From a virus: 64,000 nt of DNA. Each line of letters begins with the position of its first letter. Position 1 is the first letter of the stretch. This document shows positions 18,853 to 43,834 of this stretch, piece by piece. The notes under the pieces were generated by a model. It did no database searches, was not told where the DNA came from, and was given only the letters and a program-made list of their open reading frames with translations. The position numbers were made by a program, and so were the translations under genes. The DNA lies in IMG/VR virus record IMGVR_UViG_3300032053_000002, positions 108,752-172,751 of that record; one strand, given 5' to 3'.

Positions 18853-20160
18853 TTACATTAAGTCATCTTGATGAAACAGGTCGCCAGATCCAGCCACGAC
18901 CGGTTCAACTTCTTCTTTTTCCTTTTTCTCTTTTTTCGGCTCTTTGACTACATCTTTTTCGAACAGCGGCTCGGCGTCGAGGTTACTATATTGCTGAATG
19001 AACTGCAACAGATGTGTTCTTTCGGAATCGGCACCACCTTCACCGGAAAACATATTCACCACACTGGCTTCCATCACTTCACTGAAAGTAAACCCATCGT
19101 TCAACATGCTAACCTGCGCGACAGTGGAGCGGATAGAAATCATGGTAGTCAGGGTTGGCGCTTCACTGGTAGCCTCTTTACGAGTATACCCGGCAACAGC
19201 AACAATACCCTTAATAAGTTTCTGGTTAATTTCAGGATATAAAAGTTTTAACAACTTGAATTCTTCGGCTTCAGTAGGAATATCCATTTCAATCATGACC
19301 GGAAAACGGTCTTTCGTAGCACGATCAATGATACGAGTAGCGGTGTATTCACCACCGACGTTAGCGGTCGTAAAGAACGTTACTCCAGGAGCGACATTGA
19401 TTACAGGTGTTTTCGGGTCTTCATCCAACCGCACATAACGCTGATCCGGATCGAGAATCGTCATAAGGATATTTTCAGCATCAGGATTGGCACGAGTTAT
19501 TTCGTCCAAGAGAATTACAGCACCCGGTGTCGTAATGGCTTTGATAAACTCAGACTTGACGAAGTAAGTACCGGTTTCCTTATTGAAGTGTGTGTTACCG
19601 ATTAAAGTAGCACGAGCGTCCTGTGTAGCCCCAAGATTAAACTTGAAGAACGGGCGACCCAGAACTTTACCGATAGTGCGACCGGTAAGTGTTTTACCGA
19701 ATCCACTATAACCCGTAAAGATGATATTCTGGCCACGAAGAGCAGAGTGCACCGCATACTTCCATTTCAGTTCAGCCAATATGAGGGTCTTCGGTTTCAG
19801 TGAGATTGCGTTCTTGATAGCAGTACGTACATCTTCATCAGATGGGGTTACGTATCCTGTATATTCAGATGGAGTAGTCGCCTCGACTGTGGGGTTGGCG
19901 ACAACCGAAGTAGGCATAAGTGTAGAACCGTTACTATATTCATAGTCAACGGGAACTTCATCGGCTTTCAAACGACGCCAGAAAACATTACCGGCCTTCG
20001 ATACCACTTTTCCTAAGTAGATACCGTGGTCAGCCGCATGGCGACGAGCGCCGTAAGGTATTGGTTCGCTATACATCTTCTCCGTCTTGATTTCAATCGG
20101 GTTCAGATGAGAACCATCGCGAACGACTTTAACGATTACTAAAAATTTTGGTGATTTCAT
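18853..20160 (-). CDS. CobS-like / MoxR-family AAA+ ATPase
   Basis: 435 aa; Walker A GYSGFGKT, Walker B ILLDEITRANPDAENILMTILD, sensor motifs; partner of the vWA protein. Confidence 0.75.
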   Translation of the reverse strand: MKSPKFLVIVKVVRDGSHLNPIEIKTEKMYSEPIPYGARRHAADHGIYLGKVVSKAGNVFWRRLKADEVPVDYEYSNGSTLMPTSVVANPTVEATTPSEYTGYVTPSDEDVRTAIKNAISLKPKTLILAELKWKYAVHSALRGQNIIFTGYSGFGKTLTGRTIGKVLGRPFFKFNLGATQDARATLIGNTHFNKETGTYFVKSEFIKAITTPGAVILLDEITRANPDAENILMTILDPDQRYVRLDEDPKTPVINVAPGVTFFTTANVGGEYTATRIIDRATKDRFPVMIEMDIPTEAEEFKLLKLLYPEINQKLIKGIVAVAGYTRKEATSEAPTLTTMISIRSTVAQVSMLNDGFTFSEVMEASVVNMFSGEGGADSERTHLLQFIQQYSNLDAEPLFEKDVVKEPKKEKKEKEEVEPVVAGSGDLFHQDDLM

Positions 20161-20193
20161 GTAACTTTATTCCTTCCCTAAATTGTATACTTA

Positions 20194-20265
20194 AATATAC
20201 CAAATCCCGGCTTACTAGTCAACTGCTATTTTAACTATTTTTTCAGCCTTGTGAATTATTTCACT
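20194..20265 (-). promoter_or_regulatory. sigma70-like promoter TTGACT-N17-TATATT plus upstream TGTGA-N6-TCAC half-palindrome
   Basis: Reverse complement TTGACT agtaagccgggatttgg TATATT ... GGAAGGA SD ... ATG. Confidence 0.6.
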
Positions 20266-20545
20266 TGACCTTTTTCTTAGCGAATTCTGAAAACGTATCA
20301 CTCTTTCGAGCGACAGTCGCTACTTTCATTAACCGCTTACCGAACACCCGATCACAATCTTTGTCAGCAAGAGTTTTCTCTATTCTTTGCTGAACTTTCG
20401 CCACAAGCGCCGGGTGGATGTTAAAAGACGTAACCTTATATCCCCATTCCCGAACTTCAAACTTGAATATGCCCACCTTTTTAGGCATTCGTTTCAGTAT
20501 CGTTAAAGTCAGACGATTATCCTGTTCCTTAAATATCGCTTTCAT
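20261..20545 (-). CDS. hypothetical basic protein, 94 aa
   Basis: ORF track. Confidence 0.45.
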   Translation of the reverse strand: MKAIFKEQDNRLTLTILKRMPKKVGIFKFEVREWGYKVTSFNIHPALVAKVQQRIEKTLADKDCDRVFGKRLMKVATVARKSDTFSEFAKKKVK

Positions 20546-20752
20546 TTATAGCGCTCCCATTCTTTTTAATTTGTTAATTGCGGTATGCAGTTCGTGGCAA
20601 AGATATTTATGCGCAACAAACTTTTCAACATCCTCTTCTTTTCGAGCACGGTGAACTATCGTATAGCGTTTGGATTCCTTAACCCACCCAAATACCAGCC
20701 ATTCGCGATGCCCCCTCAATGTCTTAAATAATCTTGGTCTTCCCGATTTCAT
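20546..20752 (-). CDS. hypothetical protein, 68 aa
   Basis: ORF track. Confidence 0.4.
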   Translation of the reverse strand: MKSGRPRLFKTLRGHREWLVFGWVKESKRYTIVHRARKEEDVEKFVAHKYLCHELHTAINKLKRMGAL

Positions 20753-21201
20753 TATACTTGTTCCTTGTTATATTTCATGTATATTTTATTTAATTTTGTC
20801 GCCACCTTTTCACCTATCGGAATCTTCTCATCGGATGAAATGGCTCTTAATACGGTTAGTATCAACATGCACGACTCTACCTCGTCACGATCTTCCCCCA
20901 CAGCAATTAACTGTAATTTTTTCAGCTTCTCATATAGTATCGTAAAATCTTTTAATTCCACGACTTTCGCTTTGTAAATGTATAAAATTTCGCCTCTTTT
21001 GTATTTATCTACTTTCGGCGTATTATTAGGATCAGAATGTCGTATATCAAATACCATACTAAAAGTACCGCTGGCATTCCCATACAAATCGACTGTGCCC
21101 GACCAGGGTTCGGCAGGTTCTATCAAAGAACCACCTAACCCCTGCTTCTCGTACCCGTCTTTTTTATCGAATTCTATTATCTTGTATACCATATCAATCA
21201 T
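20752..21201 (-). CDS. paralog-family-related protein (C-terminal LNKIYMKYNKEQV)
   Basis: 149 aa; has the C-terminal motif but lacks the FYIW core. Confidence 0.5.
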   Translation of the reverse strand: MIDMVYKIIEFDKKDGYEKQGLGGSLIEPAEPWSGTVDLYGNASGTFSMVFDIRHSDPNNTPKVDKYKRGEILYIYKAKVVELKDFTILYEKLKKLQLIAVGEDRDEVESCMLILTVLRAISSDEKIPIGEKVATKLNKIYMKYNKEQV

Positions 21202-21451
21202 TTATCAGTAAAAGTTTCATCCCATCGATGGAAACATATCTCCAGCCATGCGTTTCTCCTTCACCATCTTTGTCGGCTCCAGAAAATATAAAGGTTCGTT
21301 TTTCTCCAGTACTCTCGTTCAACACAGTAACACAATTGTATAAGTGATGGTTTTTCACACGACCACTCAAATCACTCCATTCCCATGCCAGTGTCCGGGT
21401 TTTCTTATCCCACCCATTTTTCATCAGTTGGTTATTTACAGTGATTATCAT
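21194..21451 (-). CDS. hypothetical protein, 85 aa
   Basis: ORF track. Confidence 0.45.
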   Translation of the reverse strand: MIITVNNQLMKNGWDKKTRTLAWEWSDLSGRVKNHHLYNCVTVLNESTGEKRTFIFSGADKDGEGETHGWRYVSIDGMKLLLIND

Positions 21452-21452
21452 A

Positions 21453-21623
21453 TTATTTGATCCTCTTTGATGTTAAAAAACTGTAGATGACGTACATAAC
21501 TGCGGCGAATGCGAACAGCATCGGTTCCGTTATCAGTAAGTAAGTCAGTATCGCGACAACAAATATCGTTTCAAATGTCGCCTTCAATATCATTTTTTTA
21601 TTCACTTTACTTTTCATATTCAT
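21453..21623 (-). CDS. small membrane protein, 56 aa (below track cutoff)
   Basis: ATG 21623, TAA 21453-21455; MNMKSKVNKKMILKATFETIFVVAILTYLLITEPMLFAFAAVMYVIYSFLTSKRIK; consensus promoter directly upstream. Confidence 0.35.
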   Translation of the reverse strand: MNMKSKVNKKMILKATFETIFVVAILTYLLITEPMLFAFAAVMYVIYSFLTSKRIK

Positions 21624-21652
21624 ATATTACATCTTTCCGAATTATCAGTCAA
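21624..21652 (-). promoter_or_regulatory. sigma70-like promoter TTGACT-N17-TAATAT
   Basis: Reverse complement TTGACT gataattcggaaagatg TAATAT. Confidence 0.5.
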
Positions 21653-21718
21653 ATTATATTTTAACTATTTTTATTCTTTGTGAAAAATTTCACTTTATTT
21701 GTGTCCTATTTTTTAATT

Positions 21719-22087
21719 TTAATGCCAGTTAGTCTGATATACGGAACTTCCACTCCATACGTACGCGCGTTCAAAAGAAGAGATCGATATAAACTCGCGA
21801 CCATCTTTGGTAAGTTTTACCTTTTTCATTTTATTTTCCATACGAGCATAGTCATTACCGGCATTTAGGTCAGGTATAACGTAGTCGCTTAAACCGGTTT
21901 CCCTCTTCACGATCTTCTGCCCCACTCCGACAACCTTCACAGACTTAGCGGTCACGGCAACCACTTTATAAAAGTTTACGTTGGTCTGTTCATAACCCCA
22001 GCAACTTACGAGAATGTCATTTACTTTCATTATTATTTCCCTTTTAGTTTTAGTGTCAACATAAATGGATACAACCGCGTCAACCAC
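21719..22087 (-). CDS. hypothetical protein, 122 aa
   Basis: ORF track. Confidence 0.5.
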   Translation of the reverse strand: MVDAVVSIYVDTKTKREIIMKVNDILVSCWGYEQTNVNFYKVVAVTAKSVKVVGVGQKIVKRETGLSDYVIPDLNAGNDYARMENKMKKVKLTKDGREFISISSFERAYVWSGSSVYQTNWH

Positions 22088-22230
22088 TTTTCTACTTCTT
22101 CCAAAAGTGTTTCGTCAGAAACCGTTGATTTTGTCCGTGGTCTTAGCCAAGCTGCGAGTTCTTTTTTTATTTCGTCGAATGGACGAGTAGTGTCAATCGT
22201 AAACGGTGCGTCATTTTTTGATTTACTCAT
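22033..22230 (-). CDS. hypothetical protein, 65 aa
   Basis: ORF track. Confidence 0.35.
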   Translation of the reverse strand: MSKSKNDAPFTIDTTRPFDEIKKELAAWLRPRTKSTVSDETLLEEVEKWLTRLYPFMLTLKLKGK

Positions 22231-22325
22231 TTTATTTATGTCCTATTTTTTTACTTACCAGTGAATGTATCGTATAGCACATCGCCAGATTCGCGGCGAC
22301 AACTACTAAAACAACGACTACCATT

Positions 22326-22691
22326 TTAATTAGTCCTCGACTTGGATGCACGTAACCAGTCAGTATTGACTACTACCGGAACGACATCAGTGATCTTACC
22401 ATTAGCAACTTTCGCTAACTGACCAATATATTTTTTGATTCTACGTTTGATGATGGCGAACTGCTTGTCAGTGATAAACCCAAACCGTGAATAGAAGTTA
22501 CCGATGCTGGTAAATATCTCACCATCGACACCAGTGAACCCCACTCCATTATCTTCGGTCGTACCAACGAATGATTTTTCGCCACGAGTCTGAAGAGAAT
22601 AGATTCTCAGGAAACCCTTGAATATGGCGTAGTCATTGTCTATCAGCATATTCGCTATATCTTCTTTATTATACTTTGGTTTTGTTTTCAT
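22326..22691 (-). CDS. hypothetical protein, 121 aa
   Basis: ORF track; consensus promoter at 22700-22728. Confidence 0.5.
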   Translation of the reverse strand: MKTKPKYNKEDIANMLIDNDYAIFKGFLRIYSLQTRGEKSFVGTTEDNGVGFTGVDGEIFTSIGNFYSRFGFITDKQFAIIKRRIKKYIGQLAKVANGKITDVVPVVVNTDWLRASKSRTN

Positions 22692-22699
22692 AATAGTAT

Positions 22700-22728
22700 A
22701 ATATACAATTCCTCAGTATAACAGTCAA
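22700..22728 (-). promoter_or_regulatory. sigma70-like promoter TTGACT-N17-TATATT
   Basis: Reverse complement TTGACT gttatactgaggaattg TATATT. Confidence 0.55.
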
Positions 22729-22754
22729 ATTATTTTTTAACTATTCTTACAGAG

Positions 22755-22883
22755 TGTGAAATTATTCACAAGATCGTCGCCGTGACTGGCGACTTGCCAT
22801 CCCGAGCCTTGTGAAGTTTTTCACAAAGTAGCGGCTCAGCTTGACGCGAGCAAGCGGCCGGCCGCGTTGTGAAATTTTTCACA
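22755..22883. promoter_or_regulatory. cluster of three perfect CRP-like palindromes TGTGA-N6-TCACA (22755-22770, 22810-22825, 22868-22883) with GC-rich hairpins between them
   Basis: TGTGAAATTATTCACA, TGTGAAGTTTTTCACA, TGTGAAATTTTTCACA; also GTCGCC-gtgactg-GGCGAC hairpin and 12-bp palindrome GCGGCCGGCCGC. Confidence 0.6.
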
Positions 22884-22899
22884 AGCGACTGTAATAAAA

Positions 22900-23255
22900 A
22901 AGTCCTACGTCCGTGACTTCCATGTAGCCTCGGGTTGCGATCCCGTTCGTCATGGCCTCGTCACGTAATTCGTAGGACTTTTCTCACCTAAGTCGTTTCC
23001 GACTGTCCACATTACCTGCTAGCCGGCGGGATAGTTGGATGGGCGACGACTCCCATCATCTCATACCGACACATACGGCCGGTGCGCCTTTCTTCCTTAG
23101 ACCACAACTATTTTCGGTGATTCTCGCGATTTCTGCCGAATTCGCGATACTTTTATTCATTTCTCAAAGAACAAAAGAGTGCCCCGTAGGACACCCCCGA
23201 ACGTTCTCCCGGGGAGTGTCCTCCACGCGGGTATACGTTCCATATTTGATATACT
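22900..23255 (-). ncRNA. candidate ~350-nt structured non-coding RNA (GC-rich, ORF-free, own promoter and terminator-like 3' stem)
   Basis: Consensus promoter at 23256-23284 fires into this segment; no credible ORF on either strand; 3' end forms long stem GTCCTACG...CGTAGGAC followed by a U-run (plus-strand aaaaaaGTCCTACG at ~22905); GC content far above surrounding DNA. Confidence 0.4.
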
Positions 23256-23284
23256 AATATACAACTTCTTGGCGAGAAAGTCAA
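23256..23284 (-). promoter_or_regulatory. sigma70-like promoter TTGACT-N17-TATATT
   Basis: Reverse complement TTGACT ttctcgccaagaagttg TATATT. Confidence 0.55.
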
Positions 23285-23292
23285 CTGTTATT

Positions 23293-23472
23293 TTAACTAA
23301 ATGGGGAATCTCGATCTTCTAACTCGTCGAGCGTACGCTTGAAATCTTCGAGCGTCTCAATATATTTCAACTTCAGCTGCTTGTTTTCTTTAAGCAATCG
23401 CTCCACTTCCTTCTTCAACTCGGAGATGGTTTTCAGCATCTCGATCTTATTCTTTAGTTCAGCGGTAGTCAT
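23293..23472 (-). CDS. small coiled-coil protein, 59 aa (below track cutoff)
   Basis: ATG 23472, TAA 23293-23295; MTTAELKNKIEMLKTISELKKEVERLLKENKQLKLKYIETLEDFKRTLDELEDRDSPFS. Confidence 0.35.
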   Translation of the reverse strand: MTTAELKNKIEMLKTISELKKEVERLLKENKQLKLKYIETLEDFKRTLDELEDRDSPFS

Positions 23473-23498
23473 ATCTTATCCTTATTTTTAAGTCTTAG

Positions 23499-23723
23499 TT
23501 ATAGAACAAAAAAAACCGCTCGGTTCTTTCCAACCTTTTCATACGTCAACACCCTTGAAGGGCGGAAATCGCTCAAATAACCGGCGAGTTCATCCAAAGA
23601 ATCGAAATACTTCGGCGAAAAAAACTTATCAGGATCGGGGTCTTTTTCCAATACCCATCGCTTGTTGAGCATTTTGCGCCGATTTTTGACCTTGTTGGCG
23701 AAATAATGGTCGGTGGTTTTCAT
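23499..23723 (-). CDS. hypothetical protein, 74 aa
   Basis: ORF track. Confidence 0.45.
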   Translation of the reverse strand: MKTTDHYFANKVKNRRKMLNKRWVLEKDPDPDKFFSPKYFDSLDELAGYLSDFRPSRVLTYEKVGKNRAVFFVL

Positions 23724-23753
23724 ATATTGTTTCCTTTTTTTATATTTTAATCT

Positions 23754-23829
23754 TGGGGTGCACGGTGAGATTCGAACTCACGCTCCGCGGGTCACAGCCG
23801 CGTAATGCTACCGCTACATCACGCGCACC
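23754..23829 (-). tRNA. tRNA-His (anticodon GTG) with G-1:C73 and encoded CCA
   Basis: Reverse complement G-GTGCGCG..anticodon stem CGCGG/CCGCG loop CTGTGAC..T-arm GTGAG TTCGAAT CTCAC..CGTGCAC-C-CCA. Confidence 0.85.
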
Positions 23830-23836
23830 ATATATT

Positions 23837-24058
23837 TTATCCTGAGAAAGCTTTTTCCAATGTTATTCGTTGCAACACTTCCCAGTATAACTTCGGCATT
23901 GCCTTCTTATCGATCATTTCCGATATATTCCGAGCCGATCCGAATTCGTCTTCAAAAGCCTGTTCGGACTTCTCAATGTACTTTTTTACTTCTTTTAAAA
24001 ACGTCATGTTACTCTTCACGGCGAAACTCTCCTTAATTTTTATACTATAATATAACAC
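23837..24058 (-). CDS. hypothetical protein, 73 aa
   Basis: ORF track; consensus-type promoter at ~24049-24078 (spacer 18). Confidence 0.45.
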   Translation of the reverse strand: MLYYSIKIKESFAVKSNMTFLKEVKKYIEKSEQAFEDEFGSARNISEMIDKKAMPKLYWEVLQRITLEKAFSG

Positions 24059-24086
24059 CTATCAGCTTACCAGTCAACTGCTATTT

Positions 24087-24524
24087 TTACTTATTTTTTG
24101 CGTATGCATTTAGTGCCCATCTCCACATTTCGTTTAAAAACCCAACGTCTTTTATACTGAGTTTGCGGGTTTTTAAAAATTCTTTATAAAATAACGTTAT
24201 TTCCGTTGCTGATTCGGTACACCCGACATTCTTTAAACTACTAATTAAAAGCTCAATTTTTTCGCTGATTCTTTTTATTTTCTCTTCGGGCGACTCTACT
24301 CTTTCTAGTACGAAAAATGGAAAATTATATCCGCTATCAAGATGAATTCCTTTACTTCCGCTACAAATAAACGTTATGTCGCCCTCTTCACCGACATATT
24401 TGTCCATCATAGAAGTCCAAGTATTATCCCATCCATTTTCATGATTATGAGCAATCATTACAACTTTTACTCTGTCGCCAACTTTGAATCCGGCAGCTTT
24501 TTGTTTGATTTCGTATTCACTCAT
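24087..24524 (-). CDS. hypothetical protein, 145 aa; paralog of 24521..24955
   Basis: Shares KVGDRVKVV...W.NTW N-terminal block and C-terminal FLNEMW motif with neighbour. Confidence 0.55.
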   Translation of the reverse strand: MSEYEIKQKAAGFKVGDRVKVVMIAHNHENGWDNTWTSMMDKYVGEEGDITFICSGSKGIHLDSGYNFPFFVLERVESPEEKIKRISEKIELLISSLKNVGCTESATEITLFYKEFLKTRKLSIKDVGFLNEMWRWALNAYAKNK

Positions 24525-24955
24525 TTTTTAATATACGCTTTCCATATTGCATTTAAATACTCAACATCGTCTATACTGAATTTATGACTTTTTTTAAATC
24601 GCGCGTACATTTTATACACTTCGTTAGCAACACGTTTGCATCCGTTATTCTGTAAACCACTAATTAAACGCTCAAACTTTTCACTTACTCTCTTTATTTT
24701 CTCATCGGACGACTTCACTTTTTTCAGTACGGAAGGTGGGAATCTGTATGTCGGGCCTTTACGGGGAATACTTTCTAAACGAATTCCTGCGGTCTTATGA
24801 ATATCGGATATAACCATTATTTTGCCAACACTTTTATTCATCTCAAGTACCCATGTATTCCGCCACTCACTCGTGTAGCTCTCAGCAATACCGGTAACTT
24901 TTACTTTGTCGCCGATTTTGAACTGGGTGGGGGTTCTCTTTTTTCCTGGCGACAT
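24521..24955 (-). CDS. hypothetical protein, 144 aa; paralog of 24087..24524
   Basis: KIGDKVKVTGIAESYTSEWRNTW; C-terminal YLNAIWKAYIKK. Confidence 0.55.
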   Translation of the reverse strand: MSPGKKRTPTQFKIGDKVKVTGIAESYTSEWRNTWVLEMNKSVGKIMVISDIHKTAGIRLESIPRKGPTYRFPPSVLKKVKSSDEKIKRVSEKFERLISGLQNNGCKRVANEVYKMYARFKKSHKFSIDDVEYLNAIWKAYIKK

Positions 24956-24957
24956 CT

Positions 24958-25512
24958 CTACACACTCTCCAAATATGCGTGATTTAACCCGCCTTTTTTA
25001 TTACTGTATATAGACACTTCTGCATCAAGTTCACTGGGAGTATTACTTACCCAACCGAAGAACTTCTTTCTACAATCACTGTGACGACAGAAGTCAACTT
25101 GCGGACCGTCAACCGGTTTACCACAGTAGTGGCAATACCTTTCTTCACGAAACATTTCTGTTTTCGGAAGTAAACGTTTCCATAGGGAAATATCCTTCCG
25201 CTTATACGTTTTCTTCACCACTGCGGGACTTCCAAATATAACTTCACCATGCAACTTAGCGAGATAAGGTCTTATCCATTTTACCGAGTATTCCACCACG
25301 GCGACTCGCTTATAAGTGTATTTATAATCGAACAACTTATCCATAGCGTCTTGCTGTTTTCTAATCAACTCCAGCATACCTGAATCATCTTTCACAGTAA
25401 CGGTAATCCCCAGCTCACTATTCTTGAAAACTAGGAAGGTACGCCCGACTTTATACGCAAAAGATACTTTCGCGTCTCCGTATGTCTCGTAAAACTTTTT
25501 TTCGTTCATCAT
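24958..25512 (-). CDS. hypothetical protein with C-terminal Cys-rich zinc-binding segment, 184 aa
   Basis: CHYCGKPVDGPQVDFCRHSDCRKKFFGW. Confidence 0.5.
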   Translation of the reverse strand: MMNEKKFYETYGDAKVSFAYKVGRTFLVFKNSELGITVTVKDDSGMLELIRKQQDAMDKLFDYKYTYKRVAVVEYSVKWIRPYLAKLHGEVIFGSPAVVKKTYKRKDISLWKRLLPKTEMFREERYCHYCGKPVDGPQVDFCRHSDCRKKFFGWVSNTPSELDAEVSIYSNKKGGLNHAYLESV

Positions 25513-25534
25513 TATTCTTTTCTCCTATACCTAA

Positions 25535-25563
25535 AATATACCACTTCTCAGCGTATCAGTCAA
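25535..25563 (-). promoter_or_regulatory. sigma70-like promoter TTGACT-N17-TATATT
   Basis: AGTCAA at 25558-25563 and AATATA at 25535-25540 on plus strand. Confidence 0.55.
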
Positions 25564-25664
25564 GAACTATTTTCGCTATAGCGGCATTCCGGACGGCAAT
25601 GCGGTCGTAACTAGAGCCCTTCGTGAACTTTTTCACATACGGTCTGTACGTTTTCTGTAAGTGG

Positions 25665-25745
25665 TTTTTCAATCCGCTCGCTCCTCTCGGTTGCAATCCG
25701 CTCGCTCCTCTCGGTTGTCAATTCGCTCGCTCCTCTCGGTTGTAG
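25665..25745. repeat. ~23-bp direct repeat x3 (ccgctcgctcctctcggttgcaat)
   Basis: Direct inspection, GC-rich ORF-free island. Confidence 0.8.
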
Positions 25746-25854
25746 GGGGCAACTCGGTAGACGTGTCAGGCGAGTTCAGAACCGTGCATGCAAATAGGCA
25801 GCCTGAAGTGTGTTCGTCGTGTGGGGGGGTTCTTGGCGGGAGTTTGTGGTTTGT

Positions 25855-25912
25855 GCGGGAGTTCTTGCGAGAGTTTGCGCGGGAGTTCTTGCGGGAGTTT
25901 GCGCGAGGAATC
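25855..25912. repeat. ~22-bp direct repeat x2.5 (gcgggagttcttgcgagagttt)
   Basis: Direct inspection. Confidence 0.75.
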
Positions 25913-26084
25913 GTGGAGAAGTGGGGGCATGGGGGTGGCGGTGCTTCCGACGAGTAGCAATTGCGCATCGGCAATACCTGCGACCCACTATTATAATATT
26001 ATCCGAATATCAAAAAGGCGTGGATTATTTATTTATAATAGGGAAGTGATTATCAATTCCAGCAAGTTGTATCAAATAGGCGAG

Positions 26085-30998: not shown

Positions 30999-31337
30999 TT
31001 ACTCCAACGGTGATATAGAAACGTCGCCAGTCTTTAATCCAGTGGCGACAATATAATATTTATATCTTGAAGACATGGATAATCCGCTAGTGGAATATTG
31101 TATTTCAATTATAGCAATATTAACATCGTTTTCGCCGAAGCCGTCTATTACTCGGGTGCCTTCGTATAAGACTTTAACGCCTTTTACTTCGAAACCTCCA
31201 GACGTTGTTTGCGAATTCGCGATTTTTATGAATCCGGTGCCGAATAACAAAAACAATATTAGCATGGTTAAAAAGAATGTTAGCGCCGTTTGAACGGAGG
31301 CCGATTTTAATATTTTATTCATAATGTTTCTCCTCAA
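30999..31337 (-). CDS. secreted protein with N-terminal signal/TM segment, 112 aa
   Basis: ORF track; hydrophobic N-terminus. Confidence 0.5.
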   Translation of the reverse strand: MRRNIMNKILKSASVQTALTFFLTMLILFLLFGTGFIKIANSQTTSGGFEVKGVKVLYEGTRVIDGFGENDVNIAIIEIQYSTSGLSMSSRYKYYIVATGLKTGDVSISPLE

Positions 31338-31354
31338 TTTATTTACGTTTTTTA

Positions 31355-31451
31355 GGAAGGACGGTGGGATTCGAACCCACCTATTACTTGCTCATACGGA
31401 CTTAAACCGTCGCACTTTTGTCGCATTCCCGACATTCCTGTCACGTCCTTC
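31355..31451 (-). tRNA. atypical ~97-nt tRNA-like gene, anticodon loop UUUAAGU (anticodon UAA, Leu-type), Sec-like geometry
   Basis: Reverse complement: acceptor GAAGGAC/GTCCTTC, U9, D-arm TGACA-GGAA-TGTCG (5 bp, 4-nt loop), 19-nt insert, anticodon stem ACGG/CCGT, 14-nt variable region, 6-bp T-stem GGTGGG TTCGAAT CCCACC. Confidence 0.45.
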
Positions 31452-31462: not shown

Positions 31463-32533
31463 TTACTTTACGGGTTGAATATTTACGAACGGAACCGCGC
31501 CACCAGTAACTTGTGGCAAAATACCATTCCAAGTTTGAACCGCTTGCCATTGAATTAATGCTTGTGTTAAAGACGCATTGACGATTCGATTAGCTTCAGC
31601 TTGTCCTTTCGCCACGTTAATAAGTGATTGAGCCGTACCTTCAGAAGTTTTAATCTTCTGTTGTGCTTCCGCATCAGCTTGACGAATCTTATTTTCGGCT
31701 TCGATAGCACGCTGTGTTGCTTCAATAACGGCGTTAATACTGGCCTTGACCGTTGGGTCAACGCGCATTTCGCCGACAAACCCAATCATATCAAACTTAA
31801 ATCCCTTCGGCTCAAGATCCTTCACAGCTATTTCTTTAACTCTATCAAGTAGTTCTTGTTTTCCCGCTCCAAAAATAGCCGTAACTTTCATACTTGAAGC
31901 AATACGATTAAAATAATCCCTAATTTTTGAACGAACATAAACACGGGCAATGTGTTCGGGGTCTTGACGATATTCAACGAATAAAGATGGTACTTTTTCA
32001 GAAATATATCCAAACGATACGGCTATATCTGTATTGATAACAGCACCTTCGATAGAATTAAAAGTAATGGCTTCGTCGGTTGGCGACCCCTCGTTAAGGT
32101 CTTGTGTCCATACCCAGTTTTGTAAAAATGTCGGGAATTTGTAAACATCTTCGGTAAATGGGTTTAGCCAAACACGACCGGTCATCAAAGGAAAATCTTC
32201 CACACCTTTTTGGGTGCCGTATTGGTTTACTTTGATTCCCACATAACCGGGTTCTACTTTTACGCAACCATTTAAAGTAAGAAAACAAAACGCGATAATC
32301 ATTCCCAGCATGAAAATCTTTTTGACTTCTTTCACTAAAAAGATGCCCCAAAATACTGCGGCGAAAATCATAAGAACCAATATCACCACACCGACTAAAA
32401 CGGCAATGGAGCTCGGTTCACTTATCATTTCGCCAACACTTTCGAATACCCACATAAATGCGAAGATACCGAAAATAATCAGCGCAATGGCCTTGAGAGT
32501 CGCAGAGACTCTCGGGTTCATGTTAAATAACAT
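31463..32533 (-). CDS. SPFH/band-7 (prohibitin/HflK-like) membrane protein
   Basis: 356 aa; N-terminal TM helices; C-terminal QADAEAQQKIKTSEGTAQSLINVAKGQAEANRI coiled segment typical of SPFH proteins. Confidence 0.65.
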   Translation of the reverse strand: MLFNMNPRVSATLKAIALIIFGIFAFMWVFESVGEMISEPSSIAVLVGVVILVLMIFAAVFWGIFLVKEVKKIFMLGMIIAFCFLTLNGCVKVEPGYVGIKVNQYGTQKGVEDFPLMTGRVWLNPFTEDVYKFPTFLQNWVWTQDLNEGSPTDEAITFNSIEGAVINTDIAVSFGYISEKVPSLFVEYRQDPEHIARVYVRSKIRDYFNRIASSMKVTAIFGAGKQELLDRVKEIAVKDLEPKGFKFDMIGFVGEMRVDPTVKASINAVIEATQRAIEAENKIRQADAEAQQKIKTSEGTAQSLINVAKGQAEANRIVNASLTQALIQWQAVQTWNGILPQVTGGAVPFVNIQPVK

Positions 32534-35039: not shown

Positions 35040-35205
35040 TAGTGCCTGGAGGAGGAGTTGAACCCCCGACCATCCATTCGGGCAAATCTACTAAGGATGG
35101 CTTCTCAGTAGGCGATTCTACTTCAGTCATTTGCCAACCGAAATATATTCTTTTCCTACCTACCCGCTCCGGCGGTTCCGGGCATAATAAATTGTTTTTT
35201 ATCAT
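35040..35205 (-). ncRNA. candidate small RNA / tRNA-like element driven by a consensus promoter
   Basis: Promoter 35211-35239 points into this ORF-poor segment; transcript would end ...GGTCGGGGG TTCAACT CCTCC TCCAGGCA (T-arm-like plus acceptor-like 3' end); 5' segment GCCCGGA could pair with TCCAGGC with one mismatch; internal 7-bp hairpin GCCATCC/GGATGGT; does not fold as a canonical tRNA. Confidence 0.3.
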
Positions 35206-36952: not shown

Positions 36953-38566
36953 TTAATTATCCTTCTTTAATTTGCTTACTAAAAGTTTCAATTCATAAAA
37001 ATATAAAAAATCAATTTGAGTTTTTAAAAAACATTCGATGGCATCTTTTGGAGTTTCAACAATAGGCTCTCTATCGTTAAAACTGGTATTCAATATTAAA
37101 GGGATTCCGGTTTTTTCTTTCCATTTTTTTAAAAAATTATAATACCATTTATTGTCTTTTTCTGTTACGGTTTGTATTCTCGCCGAACCGTCTGCGTGAA
37201 CTACTGCCGGAACTTTGTTTTTCATATCTTCTTTAAATTTAACAACGATAGACATATATGGACTGTCTACATCTCTAACAAACCAATCTTCTACGTCTTC
37301 TCTCAAAATACTCGGAGCAAAAGGGCGAAACCACTGGCGATGTTTTACTTTTTCATTTACTTTATCTTTCATTTTTATGTCGCGAGGATCGGCAAGAATA
37401 CTTCTATTTCCCAGTGCTCTTCTTCCGGTTTCAGATTTTCCACCATATACGGAAATTATTTTTTGGTTATTCAATAAATCAATGGCTTCTTCATCATTTG
37501 AATTCCGTGATTCGATGTTGCTATATTGTTTAATAGATTTAAAAACGTCCGAATCAGGATAAGAATACCCCAAATACGGAGTGAAATTATCTTTCCAGAA
37601 TATTCGAGGATTGTTGTTGATATGATGCCAAAAGTATTGAGCGGAGCCGATGGCGCACCCAGAATCAGCTGGGGTTGGTGATACGTATATTCCGTCAACG
37701 TTGGGAAACCAATCATAAAGTTTCCCGACCATAACGGAATTAAGAGCCACCCCTCCGGCCAAGCATAAGAATGTTGGGTTGTATTTTTCAATATAGGGCG
37801 ACAATGTTTCTCGAATTAAAATTTCTGTATATTTTTGAAGCGCCGCGGCGACATCAAATTTATATTGCTCATTCTGCTGTATAAGTTCTCGAAGTGCTTC
37901 ACGCGATATAGGAATTTCTTGAGTTACATTTTTGAAAAATCTTTCCGGGTCTCCAAACGCAGACATTGCCATAACCGTTCCTTCCTGAGATCCAATCGGA
38001 TACCCGACAGACAACCCGAATACCTGACTCGTATATTTCTGCCATATCTCTCCGATATTTGGGTCTCCCTGAAATATTTTGATGGGGTATATTTTATTAT
38101 CCACACCTGCCCAAATAGTAAATCCGGAAACTTGTTTACAAATACCACCGTCTTCGCCATTATGAAATTCGTCGCCACCACCATCCATCGTAATAATTAA
38201 CGCATTTTTATAATTGGAAGAAAAAAACGCATTCGCTGCATGAGATTTATGATGCCCAATACCATAACTGGGATTAGTTCCCGGGTCTCCATAAAAGTTA
38301 GCTATTTTTTCAGCTTTTTCATACGTATCAGGGTATCGTTTTTTAATTCCGCCGTGCCATGTCATAACAGGATGAGTAAATGCGTTTATATCACTATAAT
38401 ATGGATATACATTAAACATGAATTCAATAGAATCGGAAACTTTCATCTTCTCTCGCGAAAATCTTTCCAACTCGTGATGAACGGTCGGTATTCCATTTTC
38501 TAATATTGCAAATGAGCAATCATGCCCGCTAAGAAGTCCGCATATTTTCATTTCTTTTATCTCCAT
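36953..38566 (-). CDS. carbamoyltransferase (NodU/CmcH family)
   Basis: 537 aa; N-terminal ICGLLSGHDCSFAILENG Kae1/YrdC-like fold start and HHxSHAANAFF motif typical of this family. Confidence 0.75.
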   Translation of the reverse strand: MEIKEMKICGLLSGHDCSFAILENGIPTVHHELERFSREKMKVSDSIEFMFNVYPYYSDINAFTHPVMTWHGGIKKRYPDTYEKAEKIANFYGDPGTNPSYGIGHHKSHAANAFFSSNYKNALIITMDGGGDEFHNGEDGGICKQVSGFTIWAGVDNKIYPIKIFQGDPNIGEIWQKYTSQVFGLSVGYPIGSQEGTVMAMSAFGDPERFFKNVTQEIPISREALRELIQQNEQYKFDVAAALQKYTEILIRETLSPYIEKYNPTFLCLAGGVALNSVMVGKLYDWFPNVDGIYVSPTPADSGCAIGSAQYFWHHINNNPRIFWKDNFTPYLGYSYPDSDVFKSIKQYSNIESRNSNDEEAIDLLNNQKIISVYGGKSETGRRALGNRSILADPRDIKMKDKVNEKVKHRQWFRPFAPSILREDVEDWFVRDVDSPYMSIVVKFKEDMKNKVPAVVHADGSARIQTVTEKDNKWYYNFLKKWKEKTGIPLILNTSFNDREPIVETPKDAIECFLKTQIDFLYFYELKLLVSKLKKDN

Positions 38567-39560
38567 TTATCATATAATATTTTTTCCAATATTCGATCAT
38601 TTCATCTAACATTTCTTCAAATGTTATTTCCGGTTTCCAACCCGTAGCATTTCTTAATTTGGTCGAGTCTCCCCGTAGTTCATTTAGTTCTTCAGGTCGT
38701 AAATATTTTTTATCAATTTTAACATAATTTTTCCAATCCAATCCTAAAGATGCAAATACATATTCGAGCAATTCCTTAACTGAATGAGATACACCGGTGG
38801 CACAAACAAAATCATCTGGACTATCTTGTTGTAAAATTAACCACATGGCTTTGGCATAATCTTTTGCGTGTCCCCAATCTCTTTTTGCATCAATATTTCC
38901 GAGGACTAACTCGTTTTCCAATCCAAGTTTTATTTCTGTAGCTCTCTTAACAATTTTATTAGTGACAAAATTAGTTCCTCGAACAGGCGATTCATGATTA
39001 AATAAAATTCCATTTGATGCGAATAATTTATATGAATGTCTATAATTTCTTGTAATATTATACGCAAATAATTTCGAGCATCCGTATGGACTTACTGGAT
39101 TTTTTGGCGTTGTTTCTCGCTGAAATCCATCACTATCAATATTGTTTCCAAACATTTCGCTTGAGCTCGCCTGATAAAATTTCGCGTTAGGAGTGATTAA
39201 TTTAATGGCTTCTAATAAGTTCAACGTTCCTATCGCATTCGTCTGTGACGTATAAATAGGTTGGTCGAAACTTATTCTAACATGAGATTGCGCCGCGAGA
39301 TTATAAATTTCGTCGGGCCGTGAATCTTGTAATACACGAATTAGCGAAGACATATCCGTCATGTCACCATAAACAAGTTCTAATTTTTTATGTAATTCTT
39401 TTTTAAACAGATCTTGTAATCTAGATGTTTGATTTTCGGCGACAGAATTTCTTTTTACTATTCCCCAGACTTTATAATTTTTTTCTAATAAGAATCTCGC
39501 TAAATAGCTTCCGTCCTGACCACCGGCACCAGTGAGGAACGCGACTTTTTTTATTCTCAT
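38529..39560 (-). CDS. gmd: GDP-mannose 4,6-dehydratase
   Basis: 343 aa; FLTGAGGQDGSYLARFLLEKNYKVWGIVKRNS N-terminus and YGCSKLFAY catalytic YxxxK are characteristic of GMD. Confidence 0.85.
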   Translation of the reverse strand: MRIKKVAFLTGAGGQDGSYLARFLLEKNYKVWGIVKRNSVAENQTSRLQDLFKKELHKKLELVYGDMTDMSSLIRVLQDSRPDEIYNLAAQSHVRISFDQPIYTSQTNAIGTLNLLEAIKLITPNAKFYQASSSEMFGNNIDSDGFQRETTPKNPVSPYGCSKLFAYNITRNYRHSYKLFASNGILFNHESPVRGTNFVTNKIVKRATEIKLGLENELVLGNIDAKRDWGHAKDYAKAMWLILQQDSPDDFVCATGVSHSVKELLEYVFASLGLDWKNYVKIDKKYLRPEELNELRGDSTKLRNATGWKPEITFEEMLDEMIEYWKKYYMINGDKRNENMRTS

Positions 39561-40771
39561 ACGGAAACTCCTTTATATCTATTTAATATATTACAGATAT
39601 ATTCAACGTCTTCGTCGTTCATTTCGGGATGATTGGGGACGTAAAATCCGAATTGGTCGGCTTTGTTGGCGTTATATAGTAATTTGTTTCCATATTTTTG
39701 AATGTACATCGGCTGAGTACCCATTGAACCGCATATCAGGGGTCTGGTTTCCACTCCGGCGTCAATTAAATCATACGTGATAGCGTATTTCATCGGATGA
39801 ATAACAGGATACGCGAAGTTTGAAACAAAAGTATCGTTTAATGGCTTGGGTTTCCATCCAGGCAAATTTGGAACGTTTTCTTTCCAGATAAGATTTTGAT
39901 ATGTATTAAAATTTTTATTTCTGATTTCAACATTTTTATTAAGTTTTTTGAGTTGTAGTAATCCAAGTTTAGCATTTAAATCGGTTGACCTTAAATTAAA
40001 TCCTGGATGATAAAAAGTCAGAAGCGCATCAAAATTATTTACATTCCAATGTTTTCTAAGTAGATTTCTTTTTTCTTCTGGCAAATCCCTGTCCCATCCA
40101 TGGCTTCGCAACATTAATAACATATGATATAAATCTTCGTCGTTTGTATTCACAAATCCGCCTTCAATGGTCGAAATATGATGTCCGAAATAAGTTGAAT
40201 ATGTGCTGGCGATACCAAAATTGCCTAAATGTTTACCATGATATTTTGTTCCCATTGATTCACAGTTATCCTCAATCAAATCGACATGGTATTGTTTAGA
40301 AATATTTACGAGCTTATCCATATTTGGCGAAAACCCAAGAACCGAAACAGAAATAACGGCGACTATATGGTTGTCGTTTTCTAAGATTGTGGCTAATTGA
40401 TCTAAATCAAGTGTTAAATCATCCATATTACAATCAACCAACACGGGCTTAAATCCAAGTTGTATAACCGGTGATAAGTCTGTCGCCCAAGAAATTGCGG
40501 GGACAACCACTCTAGCATTTCCGTCATAAAATTTTGCATACGCACTATTTTTACTTAATAAAGATAACGCGTACAATAAAAGAAGATTCGCGGACGAACC
40601 ACTATTTACAAACACCGAATATTTAGTTCCGATATATTTTGCCCATTCAGATTCAAGTTGAACAGTTAGTTCACCTTTGGTCAACCTCGGAAATGTTTTT
40701 AACCATTCAATTAATTCGTCAATATCTTGTTTGTCAATTGTATCATTTATTAATGCAATTTTTTTCATCAA
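39557..40771 (-). CDS. DegT/DnrJ/EryC1/StrS-family PLP-dependent sugar aminotransferase (GDP-perosamine-synthase-like)
   Basis: 404 aa; N-terminal LTKGELTVQLESEWAKYIGTKYSVFVNSGSSANLL pattern; genomic coupling with gmd. Confidence 0.8.
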   Translation of the reverse strand: MMKKIALINDTIDKQDIDELIEWLKTFPRLTKGELTVQLESEWAKYIGTKYSVFVNSGSSANLLLLYALSLLSKNSAYAKFYDGNARVVVPAISWATDLSPVIQLGFKPVLVDCNMDDLTLDLDQLATILENDNHIVAVISVSVLGFSPNMDKLVNISKQYHVDLIEDNCESMGTKYHGKHLGNFGIASTYSTYFGHHISTIEGGFVNTNDEDLYHMLLMLRSHGWDRDLPEEKRNLLRKHWNVNNFDALLTFYHPGFNLRSTDLNAKLGLLQLKKLNKNVEIRNKNFNTYQNLIWKENVPNLPGWKPKPLNDTFVSNFAYPVIHPMKYAITYDLIDAGVETRPLICGSMGTQPMYIQKYGNKLLYNANKADQFGFYVPNHPEMNDEDVEYICNILNRYKGVSV

Positions 40772-41471
40772 TAATCCCTTTCTTTTTCATATCATCAATT
40801 ATATCCTGTGATAATGTTCTGTTATCATTGATTAAATTAAAATTTAGAGGCAGGTCAAGTCTTCCTCGTCTTATAGCCTGACATGGTTGAATGACATAAT
40901 CTCTATATGTCGCCAATATTTTATATCCGTCATTTCTCGCGGCATTAGACCCGTATATTTCAAATTCCCATGGCGACCAACCGGGTAATATATATTTTAA
41001 TAAATATTTTCTATTCCATATCGACCACATTGCCGATAATCGGTAATCAACGTTGGGGCGATTAATTATAACATCAAATCCCACTTGCGAACTACAAAAA
41101 TCAAATGGTCGTAATTTACCATCATTCGTTAAACAAAATCTGCCCAACTCATCTGTTAGATAGTTTCCAATTATGTGATTATATATAAAAAAATTAACCG
41201 GTTGCATAATGAATTGATCTTCTGTTGCCCATACAAAAAATTCATCATCAATCGACTCAAAAAAAATTTTCAAATCCGTTGACCACATTTGTATTCCACC
41301 GGTTTGTTTTCCCATAGAAACAAATGTAAAATTACTCGGTAAATTAAATTCGGGCGCATCATACCCCAAAATGGTCACTGATGCGGTTGTACTCCAAAAC
41401 CTGTTAAACAAGTAAGAAAACACTTTTATTAAAGGCAAACATTGGTCGGCAGTTGAAATATAAATCTTCAT
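40743..41471 (-). CDS. hypothetical protein (possible glycosyltransferase), 242 aa
   Basis: ORF track; context. Confidence 0.45.
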   Translation of the reverse strand: MKIYISTADQCLPLIKVFSYLFNRFWSTTASVTILGYDAPEFNLPSNFTFVSMGKQTGGIQMWSTDLKIFFESIDDEFFVWATEDQFIMQPVNFFIYNHIIGNYLTDELGRFCLTNDGKLRPFDFCSSQVGFDVIINRPNVDYRLSAMWSIWNRKYLLKYILPGWSPWEFEIYGSNAARNDGYKILATYRDYVIQPCQAIRRGRLDLPLNFNLINDNRTLSQDIIDDMKKKGIIDEKNCINK

Positions 41472-42733
41472 TTATTAAGCACCATATTCCTTTCTTGAAT
41501 AAATTCTAATATTTCTTTTCTATGTTTTTTTAAATCTTCATTTGATAATTTATCATGCGTGAACACAAAATCTCTTTCATCTTCATCTTTATAGAGTCCG
41601 ACCGTAAATACATAATCACTAAAATTAAGTTGTTTTTTTAATTTAATATTATATTTTTCAGGATTGTTATAAATATCAGAACCTGGCAATGGGACAAACG
41701 TAGAAAGATCTACCGCGTCCGGATTGGTTTTTTTAATAAAATCAATCATATTTTTACTCACATCACTTTCCTGCCCCGGCAATCCTATCATTAAAAATGC
41801 TCTAATTTTAATTCCCGCTTCTTTTGTATTATGGATCGCTTCATAGATTTCACTAACATTAACCCCTTTATTATTTATATCTAAAACATTTTGAGAAACG
41901 TCTTCAATTCCAAAATCTAATTCATAACACCCAGCATCAAACATTTTTTTTAGAACGTCTTTTTCAGCAAAATCTATTCTTGTATTCGCTCTCCATTTGA
42001 TATTCAAATCTTTTATTGTATCGCAAAATTCAAATACCCACTTTTTGTTGGATGTTAAAGTATCATCTTGAAATCTAAATTGTTTTATATCGTATTTATT
42101 AATAATATCACGTATTTCTAGCGAAACATTTTCTGGGCTTCTATATCGCAATCTTCTTTTCCAGATGCTATTGATAGCACAGAAAGAACAGTTGAAAGGA
42201 CATCCACGAGACGCAATTATAGAAGTTGCGTCTTCTCCCCTTTCGCAAAGATATTTACTAATAAAAGAATCTTTTGGAAGAAGATGTCTAGCCGGAAAGG
42301 GCAAATCGCTTATATTTTTTATTAATTTCGCCTCGTATACATTTTTAAGATTGTTTTTTTCATAATCGTTTATCGCATCAATTGTAGATAACTCGCCTTC
42401 TCCAATTATTACAGAATCAAATATTTCATCAACTTTGGATGCGGTTCCATGCATTCCACCGAGAATTATTTTGCATCTATTATCTCTTCCTTTTAGCAAT
42501 TTCGCGAGTTTTAAAACGGTTGGATATTCCGGTGTAGTAGCCGTAATCCCATATATCTCATTTTGTGGCACAAAATTTAACCATCCACGTTCTTCAATAT
42601 TCCGTAAATCTATCATTTCTACCAAAAATCCGTTCGTTTCAAGATATGACGCAATATACATTATACCCAGAGACGGATTGCGTTTCTGGTCTCCTAAAAA
42701 TAGTGATGGTGGTATTATTAGAATTATTTTCAT
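41468..42733 (-). CDS. B12-binding-domain radical SAM enzyme
   Basis: 421 aa; N-terminal cobalamin-binding-like Rossmann segment then CPFNCSFC (CxxxCxxC) radical SAM cluster motif. Confidence 0.75.
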   Translation of the reverse strand: MKIILIIPPSLFLGDQKRNPSLGIMYIASYLETNGFLVEMIDLRNIEERGWLNFVPQNEIYGITATTPEYPTVLKLAKLLKGRDNRCKIILGGMHGTASKVDEIFDSVIIGEGELSTIDAINDYEKNNLKNVYEAKLIKNISDLPFPARHLLPKDSFISKYLCERGEDATSIIASRGCPFNCSFCAINSIWKRRLRYRSPENVSLEIRDIINKYDIKQFRFQDDTLTSNKKWVFEFCDTIKDLNIKWRANTRIDFAEKDVLKKMFDAGCYELDFGIEDVSQNVLDINNKGVNVSEIYEAIHNTKEAGIKIRAFLMIGLPGQESDVSKNMIDFIKKTNPDAVDLSTFVPLPGSDIYNNPEKYNIKLKKQLNFSDYVFTVGLYKDEDERDFVFTHDKLSNEDLKKHRKEILEFIQERNMVLNK

Positions 42734-42739
42734 AACGAA

Positions 42740-43832: not shown

Positions 43833-43834
43833 AA

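Follow-up and report, generated by a model that had tools for sequence, protein, structure and literature searches.

A tRNA-like element with an intact acceptor/T half and an irregular lower half in the genome of an uncultured huge phage

Plant mitochondrial t-elements, mascRNA from MALAT1 and the TMER units of gammaherpesviruses are tRNA-like processing signals or RNAs, and RNAC and RNAD of phage T4 are likewise tRNA-like in nature. The two T4 species are stable RNAs of unknown function (PMC9697503), and tRNA-Other of Bacillus cereus is a non-canonical tRNA-like gene (PMC3399842). Irregular tRNAs that are unused in translation have been described from soil and sediment metagenomes, including forms with an extra loop between the acceptor and the D stem and forms with five-stem junctions, together with G-1 species that are charged by histidyl-tRNA synthetase (HisRS) despite a non-His anticodon (PMC5389517; PMC7609411). 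Many of these irregular and allo-tRNA-like genes are inactive in translation, and they are found in phages as well as in sediment and soil metagenomes (PMC5389517; PMC7609411). Here we describe element A, a tRNA-like gene of 97 nucleotides (nt) on the minus strand at positions 31355-31451 of a 64,000-nt stretch of DNA (the window; positions 108,752 to 172,751 of IMG/VR virus record IMGVR_UViG_3300032053_000002) from an uncultured huge phage. Its acceptor/T half is a flawless tRNA minihelix, and its lower half departs from every tRNA rule that we checked. Three readings of element A are the most probable, namely a processed tRNA-like RNA, an irregular tRNA and a dead tRNA gene; the one that we prefer, with a probability of roughly 0.4, is that of a co-transcribed tRNA-like RNA that would be recognised through its acceptor/T minihelix and for which decoding may no longer be the main role. 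It is a variant of the known non-canonical tRNA-like genes and not categorically new, and it is confined so far to one phage lineage.

The RNA sense of element A is GAAGGACGUGACAGGAAUGUCGGGAAUGCGACAAAAGUGCGACGGUUUAAGUCCGUAUGAGCAAGUAAUAGGUGGGUUCGAAUCCCACCGUCCUUCC, numbered here such that RNA position i lies at window coordinate 31452-i. The 5' strand of the acceptor, GAAGGACG (RNA 1-8; 31444-31451), faces the 3' strand CGUCCUUC (RNA 89-96; 31356-31363). Pairing of G1-C7 with G90-C96 is Watson-Crick throughout, pairs 1-7 have probabilities of 0.97-1.0 in the computed fold, and a repeat finder extends the acceptor to an 8-nt, 100% complementary inverted repeat, GAAGGACG/CGTCCTTC, whose arms lie 80 nt apart (inverted repeat I1). 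The T arm, (G)GUGGG/CCCAC(C) (31364-31381; inverted repeat I4), has pair probabilities of 0.95-1.0 and was recovered by the repeat finder as a 6-nt repeat, GGTGGG/CCCACC, around a 7-nt loop; this loop, UUCGAAU (31369-31375), is the tRNA consensus (T54-Psi55-C56-R57-A58). When the helices are written in a register of 7 and 5 base pairs (bp), G1 becomes G-1, A2-G8 form the 7-bp stem and C96 is the discriminator (C73); the acceptor AAGGACG/CGUCCUU then stacks on the T stem GUGGG/CCCAC, which is the canonical 7-bp/5-bp arrangement. At the 3' end, C97 (31355) is followed by UAA, and the sequence reads C-C-U-A; CCA is not encoded.

The lower half lacks a canonical D arm, in which a 3-4-bp stem closing a loop of 7-11 nt would be separated from the acceptor by 2 nt and from a 5-bp anticodon stem by 1 nt. 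Two mutually exclusive hairpins can form in its place. Hairpin H1 (UGACA-GGAA-UGUCG; RNA 9-22; 31430-31443) was read from the sequence and consists of four Watson-Crick pairs and one U.G pair under a GNRA-type tetraloop, whereas H2 (UGUCG-GGAAUG-CGACA; RNA 18-33; 31419-31434) shares the 3' strand of H1 and is the hairpin present in both the minimum-free-energy and the centroid folds. With a pair probability of ~0.68, against ~0.3 for H1, H2 is thermodynamically favoured. Depending on which hairpin is drawn, the D region carries 19 extra nucleotides after H1 or 10 before H2. The 19-nt stretch between H1 and the anticodon stem (G23-G41; RNA 23-41; 31411-31429) holds UGCGAC twice, 11 nt apart (direct repeat D2), and no second copy of it was found elsewhere in the window. 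It is followed by an anticodon-type stem-loop, ACGG-UUUAAGU-CCGU (RNA 42-56; 31396-31410; pair probability ~0.7), in which the anticodon UAA (31402-31404) sits in a 7-nt loop, UUUAAGU, with U33, G at position 37 and U at position 38; the stem has only four pairs, and its fifth position is G.A. The variable region (RNA 57-70; 31382-31395) is 14 nt long and A-rich.

An earlier, sequence-only reading of this DNA had described most of these parts, and its perfect 7-bp acceptor, 6-bp T stem, 19-nt insertion between the D arm and the anticodon stem and anticodon loop UUUAAGU are all borne out. Two of its descriptions hold in part. The D arm of 5 bp with a 4-nt loop exists as H1 but is not the favoured fold: the structure drawn in that reading lies 3.5 kcal/mol above the minimum free energy, and a five-stem variant that retains H1 lies 1.3 kcal/mol above it. 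The variable region is indeed long, but it has no stable stem in the computed folds.

A scan of the window for a T arm combined with a 7-bp acceptor returned seven sites, all on the coding strand, namely the five tRNAs that ARAGORN calls (four tRNA-Ser and one tRNA-His), element A and a further site at 4266-4346, referred to below as element B. Shuffled windows gave ~0.6 such sites each, and element A as a whole folds better than its shuffled versions (z = -2.98). On account of these two results we conclude that element A is a real tRNA-derived feature, far beyond chance, as the sequence-only reading held when it placed a tRNA-like gene with a UAA anticodon loop and a non-standard body at these positions. 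At a relaxed threshold of 90% (-ps90), ARAGORN adds just element A and one other site in the 64 kb, and none in ~65 kb of related phage DNA; shuffled windows gave ~0.7 hits at this threshold. Two trivial readings were rejected. A plus-strand RNA was discounted since the T-loop consensus is on the minus strand only, the strand that carries every gene of the window, and a protein-coding function since only short open reading frames (ORFs) of 46-61 amino acids overlap element A, in alternative frames.

Element A lies tightly between two cistrons. Upstream is a gene for an SPFH/Band 7 protein of 356 amino acids (minus strand, 31463-32533; Pfam PF01145, E=1.4e-17; phrog_200, E=5.5e-68), the stop codon of which is 11 nt ahead of the element. 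Downstream, the ORF list gives a gene of 107 amino acids with no assigned function (minus strand, 30999-31322), and its Shine-Dalgarno sequence and ATG start ~20-32 nt after element A. The location directly after the SPFH gene and away from the tRNA-Ser cluster is as first reported. Because a simple scan detected neither a minus-strand sigma-70-like promoter upstream of element A nor a minus-strand terminator-like site around it, the simplest inference is that it is co-transcribed with the SPFH operon. We propose that, once transcribed as part of this operon, the minihelix could be recognised by host tRNA-processing enzymes, with RNase P acting at the 5' end and an endo- or exonuclease, then the CCA-adding enzyme, at the 3' end. 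Such processing would cut the polycistronic transcript at element A and free a stable RNA of ~95 nt, which would act as a processed tRNA-like RNA or as a punctuation mark in the mRNA and not as a routine decoder.

The arrangement of an intact top half on a lower half that is not tRNA-like recurs in the window in at least one other element (B), and possibly in two (B and C). Element B (minus strand, 4266-4346) was found both by the T-arm and acceptor scan and by ARAGORN -ps90. Its 7-bp acceptor has six Watson-Crick pairs and one G.U, and its T arm, GCGGG-UUCAAAU-CCCGC, is perfect; in the lower half, the D stem is all but absent, the anticodon stem is poor and the loop, UUCUAUUC (given as 'tcta' by ARAGORN), has 8 nt. 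Deletion of a single nucleotide from this loop is enough for ARAGORN to call a tRNA-Arg(UCU). Element B lies 4 nt past the stop codon of a small ORF and ~22 nt ahead of a hybrid histidine-kinase gene, and an identical copy is present in contig L016. The kinase (minus strand, 2742-4244) is a hybrid PAS histidine kinase with a receiver domain. Element C, a candidate of 144 nt (minus strand, 35040-35183), combines the tRNA-like closing stem GCC.GGA/UCC.GGC and the T arm GGGGG-UUCAACU-CCUCC with a middle part that is long and branched; it follows an HNH-endonuclease-like gene and has its own sigma-70-like promoter upstream (TTGACT-17-TATATT). Each of its three polymorphisms (T-loop R57 A>G, a T-stem G.U>G-C and a closing-stem G-C>G.U) can be accommodated in the structure. 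No deletion of element C yields a tRNA in ARAGORN, and it has no Rfam match; it could be a Y-RNA-like or a tRNA-scaffold RNA. A further ARAGORN hit at -ps85, a 'tRNA-Stop(tta)' at 61831-61920, was rejected as an AT-rich terminator-like hairpin. The recurrence of the pattern in element B, and possibly in C, suggests that tRNA 'top halves' are maintained by the phage in their own right.

We favour a non-decoding tRNA-like RNA because the defects of elements A and B are confined to the lower half, because element A is placed so tightly between cistrons, because element C exists and because irregular tRNAs that are charged or processed yet unused in translation are on record (PMC5389517, PMC7609411, PMC3399842). 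The close placement between cistrons holds for both A and B, and the layout of a processing element is found in full at element A: an intact minihelix, a degenerate body, abutting cistrons and location on the transcribed strand. It is in the intact minihelix on a degenerate body, abutting same-strand cistrons, that element A resembles t-elements, mascRNA, TMER units, tRNA-Other and RNAC/RNAD, and by analogy with the t-element and mascRNA type it would presumably be a substrate of RNase P, RNase Z and the CCA-adding enzyme and play no part in decoding. None of these RNAs is homologous to element A, which, unlike them, retains an anticodon-like loop.

Several observations weigh against a non-decoding role. 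The anticodon stem-loop has been kept with U33 and a purine at position 37, which a pure processing signal could do without; with UUA the commonest Leu codon of the phage (41%), a decoding role is plausible; and a young pseudogene could keep a perfect top half by chance, the probability that none of 6-8 random disabling changes hits the top half being ~0.03-0.07 by our own estimate. Sequence conservation also speaks less clearly than it might. Identical copies of element A were found on contigs L001, L002, L003, L011, L017 and L024, which come from several sediment samples and represent at least three haplotypes of one lineage, with 0 variable sites in the 97 nt. Relative to third codon positions on the same contigs, 5.3% of which are variable, zero sites in element A has P=0.005, but relative to aligned intergenic DNA (1.0% variable) it has P=0.36. 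As all copies are identical and belong to one phage lineage, there is no covariation to read.

Is element A simply a tRNA that standard searches have missed? At default settings ARAGORN called five other tRNAs in the window and not element A, and the same five, without element A, were listed by Rfam at the gathering score (29 bits). At E<=10, no tRNA or tRNA-Sec match was listed, and there was at most one unnamed tRNA-clan match, below 11.5 bits; the sole match listed was a local one of the 17-nt T arm to the tmRNA model (11.5 bits, E=0.008). A tmRNA was rejected since ARAGORN finds none, the match covers only the T arm and the element is just 97 nt long; nor is the G3.U70 pair of tmRNA present, the third acceptor pair being A-U or, in the other register, G-C. 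Y-RNA-like RNAs, riboswitches and other Rfam families gave no credible match. The sequence-only reading had named a software call of a standard 87-nt tRNA-Leu as one result that would tell against it. No such call was obtained: ARAGORN at the 90% threshold models an 85-nt tRNA-Leu(UAA) at 31355-31439, the acceptor of which has three Watson-Crick pairs, two G.U pairs and one mismatch, and in doing so passes over the perfect 8-bp partner 12 nt upstream. A standard tRNA with other boundaries was rejected on these grounds.

The suggestion of an intron- or insert-containing tRNA, also made from the sequence alone, fared no better. In intron mode (-i) at the default threshold, ARAGORN reported nothing at element A. 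All 1716 single deletions of 1-39 nt within RNA positions 8-70 were run through ARAGORN at default settings, and 33 were called tRNA-Leu(UAA), in every case after the loss of 10-19 nt from the D region. The D stems of the variants that were inspected had just 2-3 pairs, and none of these variants had a canonical D arm restored. A bacterial group I intron would be far longer than these 10-19 nt. On this basis, with no formal search for a bulge-helix-bulge motif made, we rejected a clean intron or insert in an otherwise normal tRNA.

Element A most likely descends from a tRNA-Leu(UAA). With a canonical type II tRNA-Leu(UAA) it shares the Leu anticodon UAA, U33, the 7-bp acceptor, the 5-bp T stem, the loop UUCGAAU and a long region between anticodon and T arm. 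It departs from this type in the discriminator, which is C in every register in place of A73, and in the 14-nt variable region, which is unpaired where type II tRNA-Leu has a long arm with a stem. Position 37 is G, only four pairs form the anticodon stem, and the D region, in excess by 10-19 nt, holds no canonical D arm. Bacterial leucyl-tRNA synthetase (LeuRS), as in E. coli, depends on A73. Positions 36-38 read A-G-U, whereas the four tRNA-Ser of the window have A36-A37-A38 or U36-A37-A38. Element A is not a standard tRNA.

One explanation for the retained features is that element A is a functional, if irregular, decoding tRNA for UUA/UUG, in which an expanded D region folds as an extra hairpin within a five-stem junction. 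We consider this possible, and on balance unlikely. Such a tRNA would supply the most-used Leu codon of an AT-rich phage, UUA and UUG making up 41% and 23% of the Leu codons in the ORFs of the window, and its altered body or anticodon loop might allow it to escape host tRNA-targeting nucleases, as is documented for phage tRNAs with altered anticodon loops (PMC10264068). The loop UUUAAGU with U33, UAA and a purine at 37 lies at the correct distance from a canonical T arm, the five-stem fold with H1 is just 1.3 kcal/mol from the minimum, both candidate D loops contain a GG that could contact the T loop, and the 97 nt show zero polymorphism. Long tRNAs in an unrelated phage array (L010), which combine the acceptor AAGGACG with an unpaired, A-rich and extra-long variable loop, are still called by ARAGORN. 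Against this, Rfam lists neither a tRNA nor a tRNA-Sec match at E<=10, with at most a clan match under 11.5 bits where the gathering score is 29; ARAGORN has to be relaxed to 90% and then picks the poor acceptor; and the discriminator C in place of the A73 needed by bacterial LeuRS, the lack of a paired variable arm, the four-pair anticodon stem with its G.A and the A-G-U at positions 36-38, unlike the A37-A38 of the four tRNA-Ser, all count as defects. The 10-19 extra nucleotides would also break the coaxial stack of the D and anticodon stems unless they are folded out of the way. Because of C73 and G-1 the amino-acid identity of such a decoder is uncertain: it could be Leu or, given G-1:C73, His. 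Irregular G-1 tRNAs are charged by HisRS in vitro, yet His-charged forms did not decode in E. coli (PMC5389517).

The same G-1:C73 pair bears on the tRNA-Sec-like (selenocysteine) geometry that the sequence-only reading had pointed out, and on the idea of a tRNA-Sec-like or allo-tRNA-like recoding tRNA whose 13-bp acceptor/T stack would engage special factors. Thirteen stacked pairs can be drawn, as 7/6, as 8/5 or as 7/5 plus G-1:C73, and the folding model prefers 7/6 (probability 0.95 for pair 71-89 and 0.05 for pair 8-89). However, a Sec-like interpretation is not specific because the 13 pairs describe equally well a 7/5 tRNA with G-1:C73, as found in the tRNA-His of this phage, and the tRNA-Sec-like geometry comes down to the pair count and a short D loop. 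G-1:C73 is a hallmark of bacterial tRNA-His. In element A, with A2 numbered +1, the pair is formed by G1 and C96, which gives an 8-bp acceptor helix as in tRNA-His, and the eighth pair is most simply read in this way; the tRNA-His of the window (23757-23828) has the G-1:C73 pair together with an encoded CCA. Element A differs from tRNA-His in its anticodon (UAA and not GUG), in a body that is not tRNA-His-like and in that CCA is not encoded.

Other features point away from selenocysteine and allo-tRNAs. Element A has the anticodon UAA where UCA would be expected and the discriminator C where G or U would be, the unpaired variable region leaves the determinant for seryl-tRNA synthetase (SerRS) missing, and the D stem has 4-5 pairs instead of 6 and is not part of the favoured fold; no match to the tRNA-Sec model was among those listed at E<=10, the one lower-scoring tRNA-clan match being unnamed. 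Allo-tRNAs are defined by a 12-bp branch (8/4 or 9/3) and have a well-paired long V-arm and G73 or U73, whereas element A has 13 pairs, with a T stem of at least 5 pairs directly after a 7-8-pair acceptor, a long unpaired V region and C73. It does have an allo-tRNA-type hairpin with a GGAA tetraloop, but this competes with H2. On the other side, the 8/5 or 7/6 arrangement can be drawn, and (9/3) allo-tRNAs with anticodons for UUA/UUG exist (PMC5389517). Element A is not a selenocysteine-type tRNA, and these features largely refute a recoding role of either type, which we hold to be highly improbable. Some features are shared with the wider group of irregular and allo-tRNA-like genes, to which no sequence homology was found, no search aimed at it having been made: like element A, these have Sec-like tetraloop D hairpins, extra loops near the D arm and G-1 with non-His anticodons, and some have anticodons for UUA/UUG (PMC5389517; PMC7609411).

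Another possibility is that element A is a decaying pseudogene, a former tRNA-Leu(UAA) that acquired insertions or duplications in its D region along with point changes and survives as it is young. Its rejection by default ARAGORN and by Rfam fits this, as does the fact that element B is one nucleotide away from a tRNA-Arg(UCU) call; AGA (46% of Arg codons) and UUA are exactly the codons whose tRNAs would formerly have been carried by an AT-rich phage. No relatives have kept element A, and its polymorphism is no lower than that of neighbouring aligned intergenic DNA. The odd region contains direct repeats (GGAAUG twice at an offset of 9 and UGCGAC twice at an offset of 11) that would fit slippage duplications. 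However, Tandem Repeats Finder reported nothing there, and neither autocorrelation peak (offsets 9 and 11) reaches significance when corrected for the 19 offsets examined; a tandem-duplication origin of the D region was set aside as a hint only. Decay does not readily account for the distribution of the damage, which in both A and B affects only the lower half and leaves 35-40 nt of acceptor, T stem and T loop free of defects. In addition, none of the deletions inspected gives back a canonical tRNA, and not one position of element A varies among three haplotypes whose third codon positions differ at 5.3%. We consider a dead tRNA gene, like the irregular decoder, possible and on balance unlikely.

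A more ambitious form of the non-decoding reading is that A, B and C are a small, phage-kept family of 'tRNA-scaffold' RNAs whose remodelled lower halves have been given a new job, which we think quite improbable. The intact acceptor/T halves would be processed, CCA-tailed and perhaps charged by host tRNA enzymes. One possibility is that such RNAs would serve as decoys or sponges for tRNA-targeting defence nucleases or tRNA-binding factors; another, for element A with its G-1:C73 and UAA, is a His-chargeable RNA that would not be a normal decoder.

The sequence-only reading had proposed a check of related phages, and no relative outside the lineage itself was found to carry element A. Scans of IMG/VR with the SPFH protein, the exact 3' half and an acceptor-plus-T-loop pattern gave no relative of the element, and one with an anticodon-arm-plus-T-loop pattern matched only inside unrelated tRNA-Glu genes (L007, L008). 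From a GTDB genome scan came only a chance hit and an att-like fragment of 25 nt, and from a JGI metagenome scan one identical copy and otherwise phage tRNA-Pro and tRNA-Arg genes that are unrelated but have the acceptor AAGGACG in common with element A. By blastn against INPHARED, only 24-26 nt of T arm and acceptor were matched, in tRNA-Ser genes (E ~3), and the alignment shows no further homology. The nearest SPFH homologue, at 59% identity (L004), has no tRNA-like element beside it and a terminator-like hairpin in its place; the more distant relatives L018 and L020-L023 have no tRNA-like element either. The array in L010 (JGI24890J29729_1005412) is that of an unrelated phage and includes two 90-94-nt 'tRNA-Pro(UGG)' genes (2128-2217 and 2534-2627) with very long, unpaired, A-rich variable loops. 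ARAGORN calls both, and the 94-nt one shares the acceptor AAGGACG; long unpaired variable loops may recur in phage tRNAs.

In the sister haplotype (L003, L011), sequence identity spans the whole of element A and ends 5 nt past its 3' end, where 136 nt (window 31214-31349) are replaced by 532 nt (L003 1310-1841). This 532-nt cassette carries two extra small ORFs (66 and 60 amino acids) and gives the next protein a different N-terminus, and its end, GCGTCCTAAAAACATAAATAAATT, resembles the sequence at and after the 3' end of element A with the downstream spacer. The boundary raises the idea that element A acts at the DNA level, as a recombination or attachment site and a hotspot for the exchange of small gene cassettes, much as tRNA genes do for integrative elements. 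The resemblance of the cassette end to the 3'-end region of the element fits such a role, and so does a T-arm/acceptor fragment of 25 nt without a 5' half in a Gemmatimonadota genome (L006), which is like an att remnant. However, no integrase or recombinase adjoins element A, the far end of the cassette bears just a short, imperfect repeat, an att site has no need of a perfect 5' acceptor strand, and mosaic boundaries beside conserved sequence are common in phages anyway, and we consider this role very improbable. The L006 fragment itself (1328-1353 of the metagenome-assembled genome contig JALYKQ010000245.1) is identical over 25 nt to the T arm and 3' acceptor strand of element A, gives no tRNA call and looks like the att-site remnant of an integrated element.

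Standard annotation misses element A and the other two tRNA-like elements of the window. Should they be functional, tRNA counts underestimate the number of tRNA-derived RNAs in huge phages, and the acceptor/T minihelix would be a handle for host processing enzymes, which bears on how operon transcripts are cut and might relate to the arms race around tRNA-cleaving defence systems. If instead they are pseudogenes, A and B are a record of tRNA-Leu(UAA) and tRNA-Arg(UCU) genes that an AT-rich phage has recently lost.

All genes of the window are on the minus strand, and its G+C content is ~34%. The assignment to a huge phage draws on a neighbouring protein that is also encoded on a 292,723-nt contig, which puts the lineage at no less than 293 kb, on a window protein that matches a 484-kb uncultured phage and a Microcystis phage, and on phage-family matches among the neighbouring proteins; relatives carry Thy1 and a T4-type prohead protease. 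Positions 14001-26000 have a G+C content of ~40-42%, compared with ~31-35% elsewhere, and may be of different origin; this segment holds the tRNA-His and a 750-amino-acid protein common to the 484-kb uncultured phage and Microcystis phage Mel-JY01. A sugar-modification block occupies 36953-45034 (minus strand) and comprises a carbamoyltransferase, an epimerase/dehydratase, a DegT aminotransferase, a B12-binding radical-SAM enzyme and glycosyltransferases. The four tRNA-Ser genes stand in a row at 985-2107 (minus strand) with spacers of ~210-300 nt, and CCA is encoded in one of the four; their anticodons (GGA, CGA, UGA and GCU) cover all Ser families, an unusual set for a phage.

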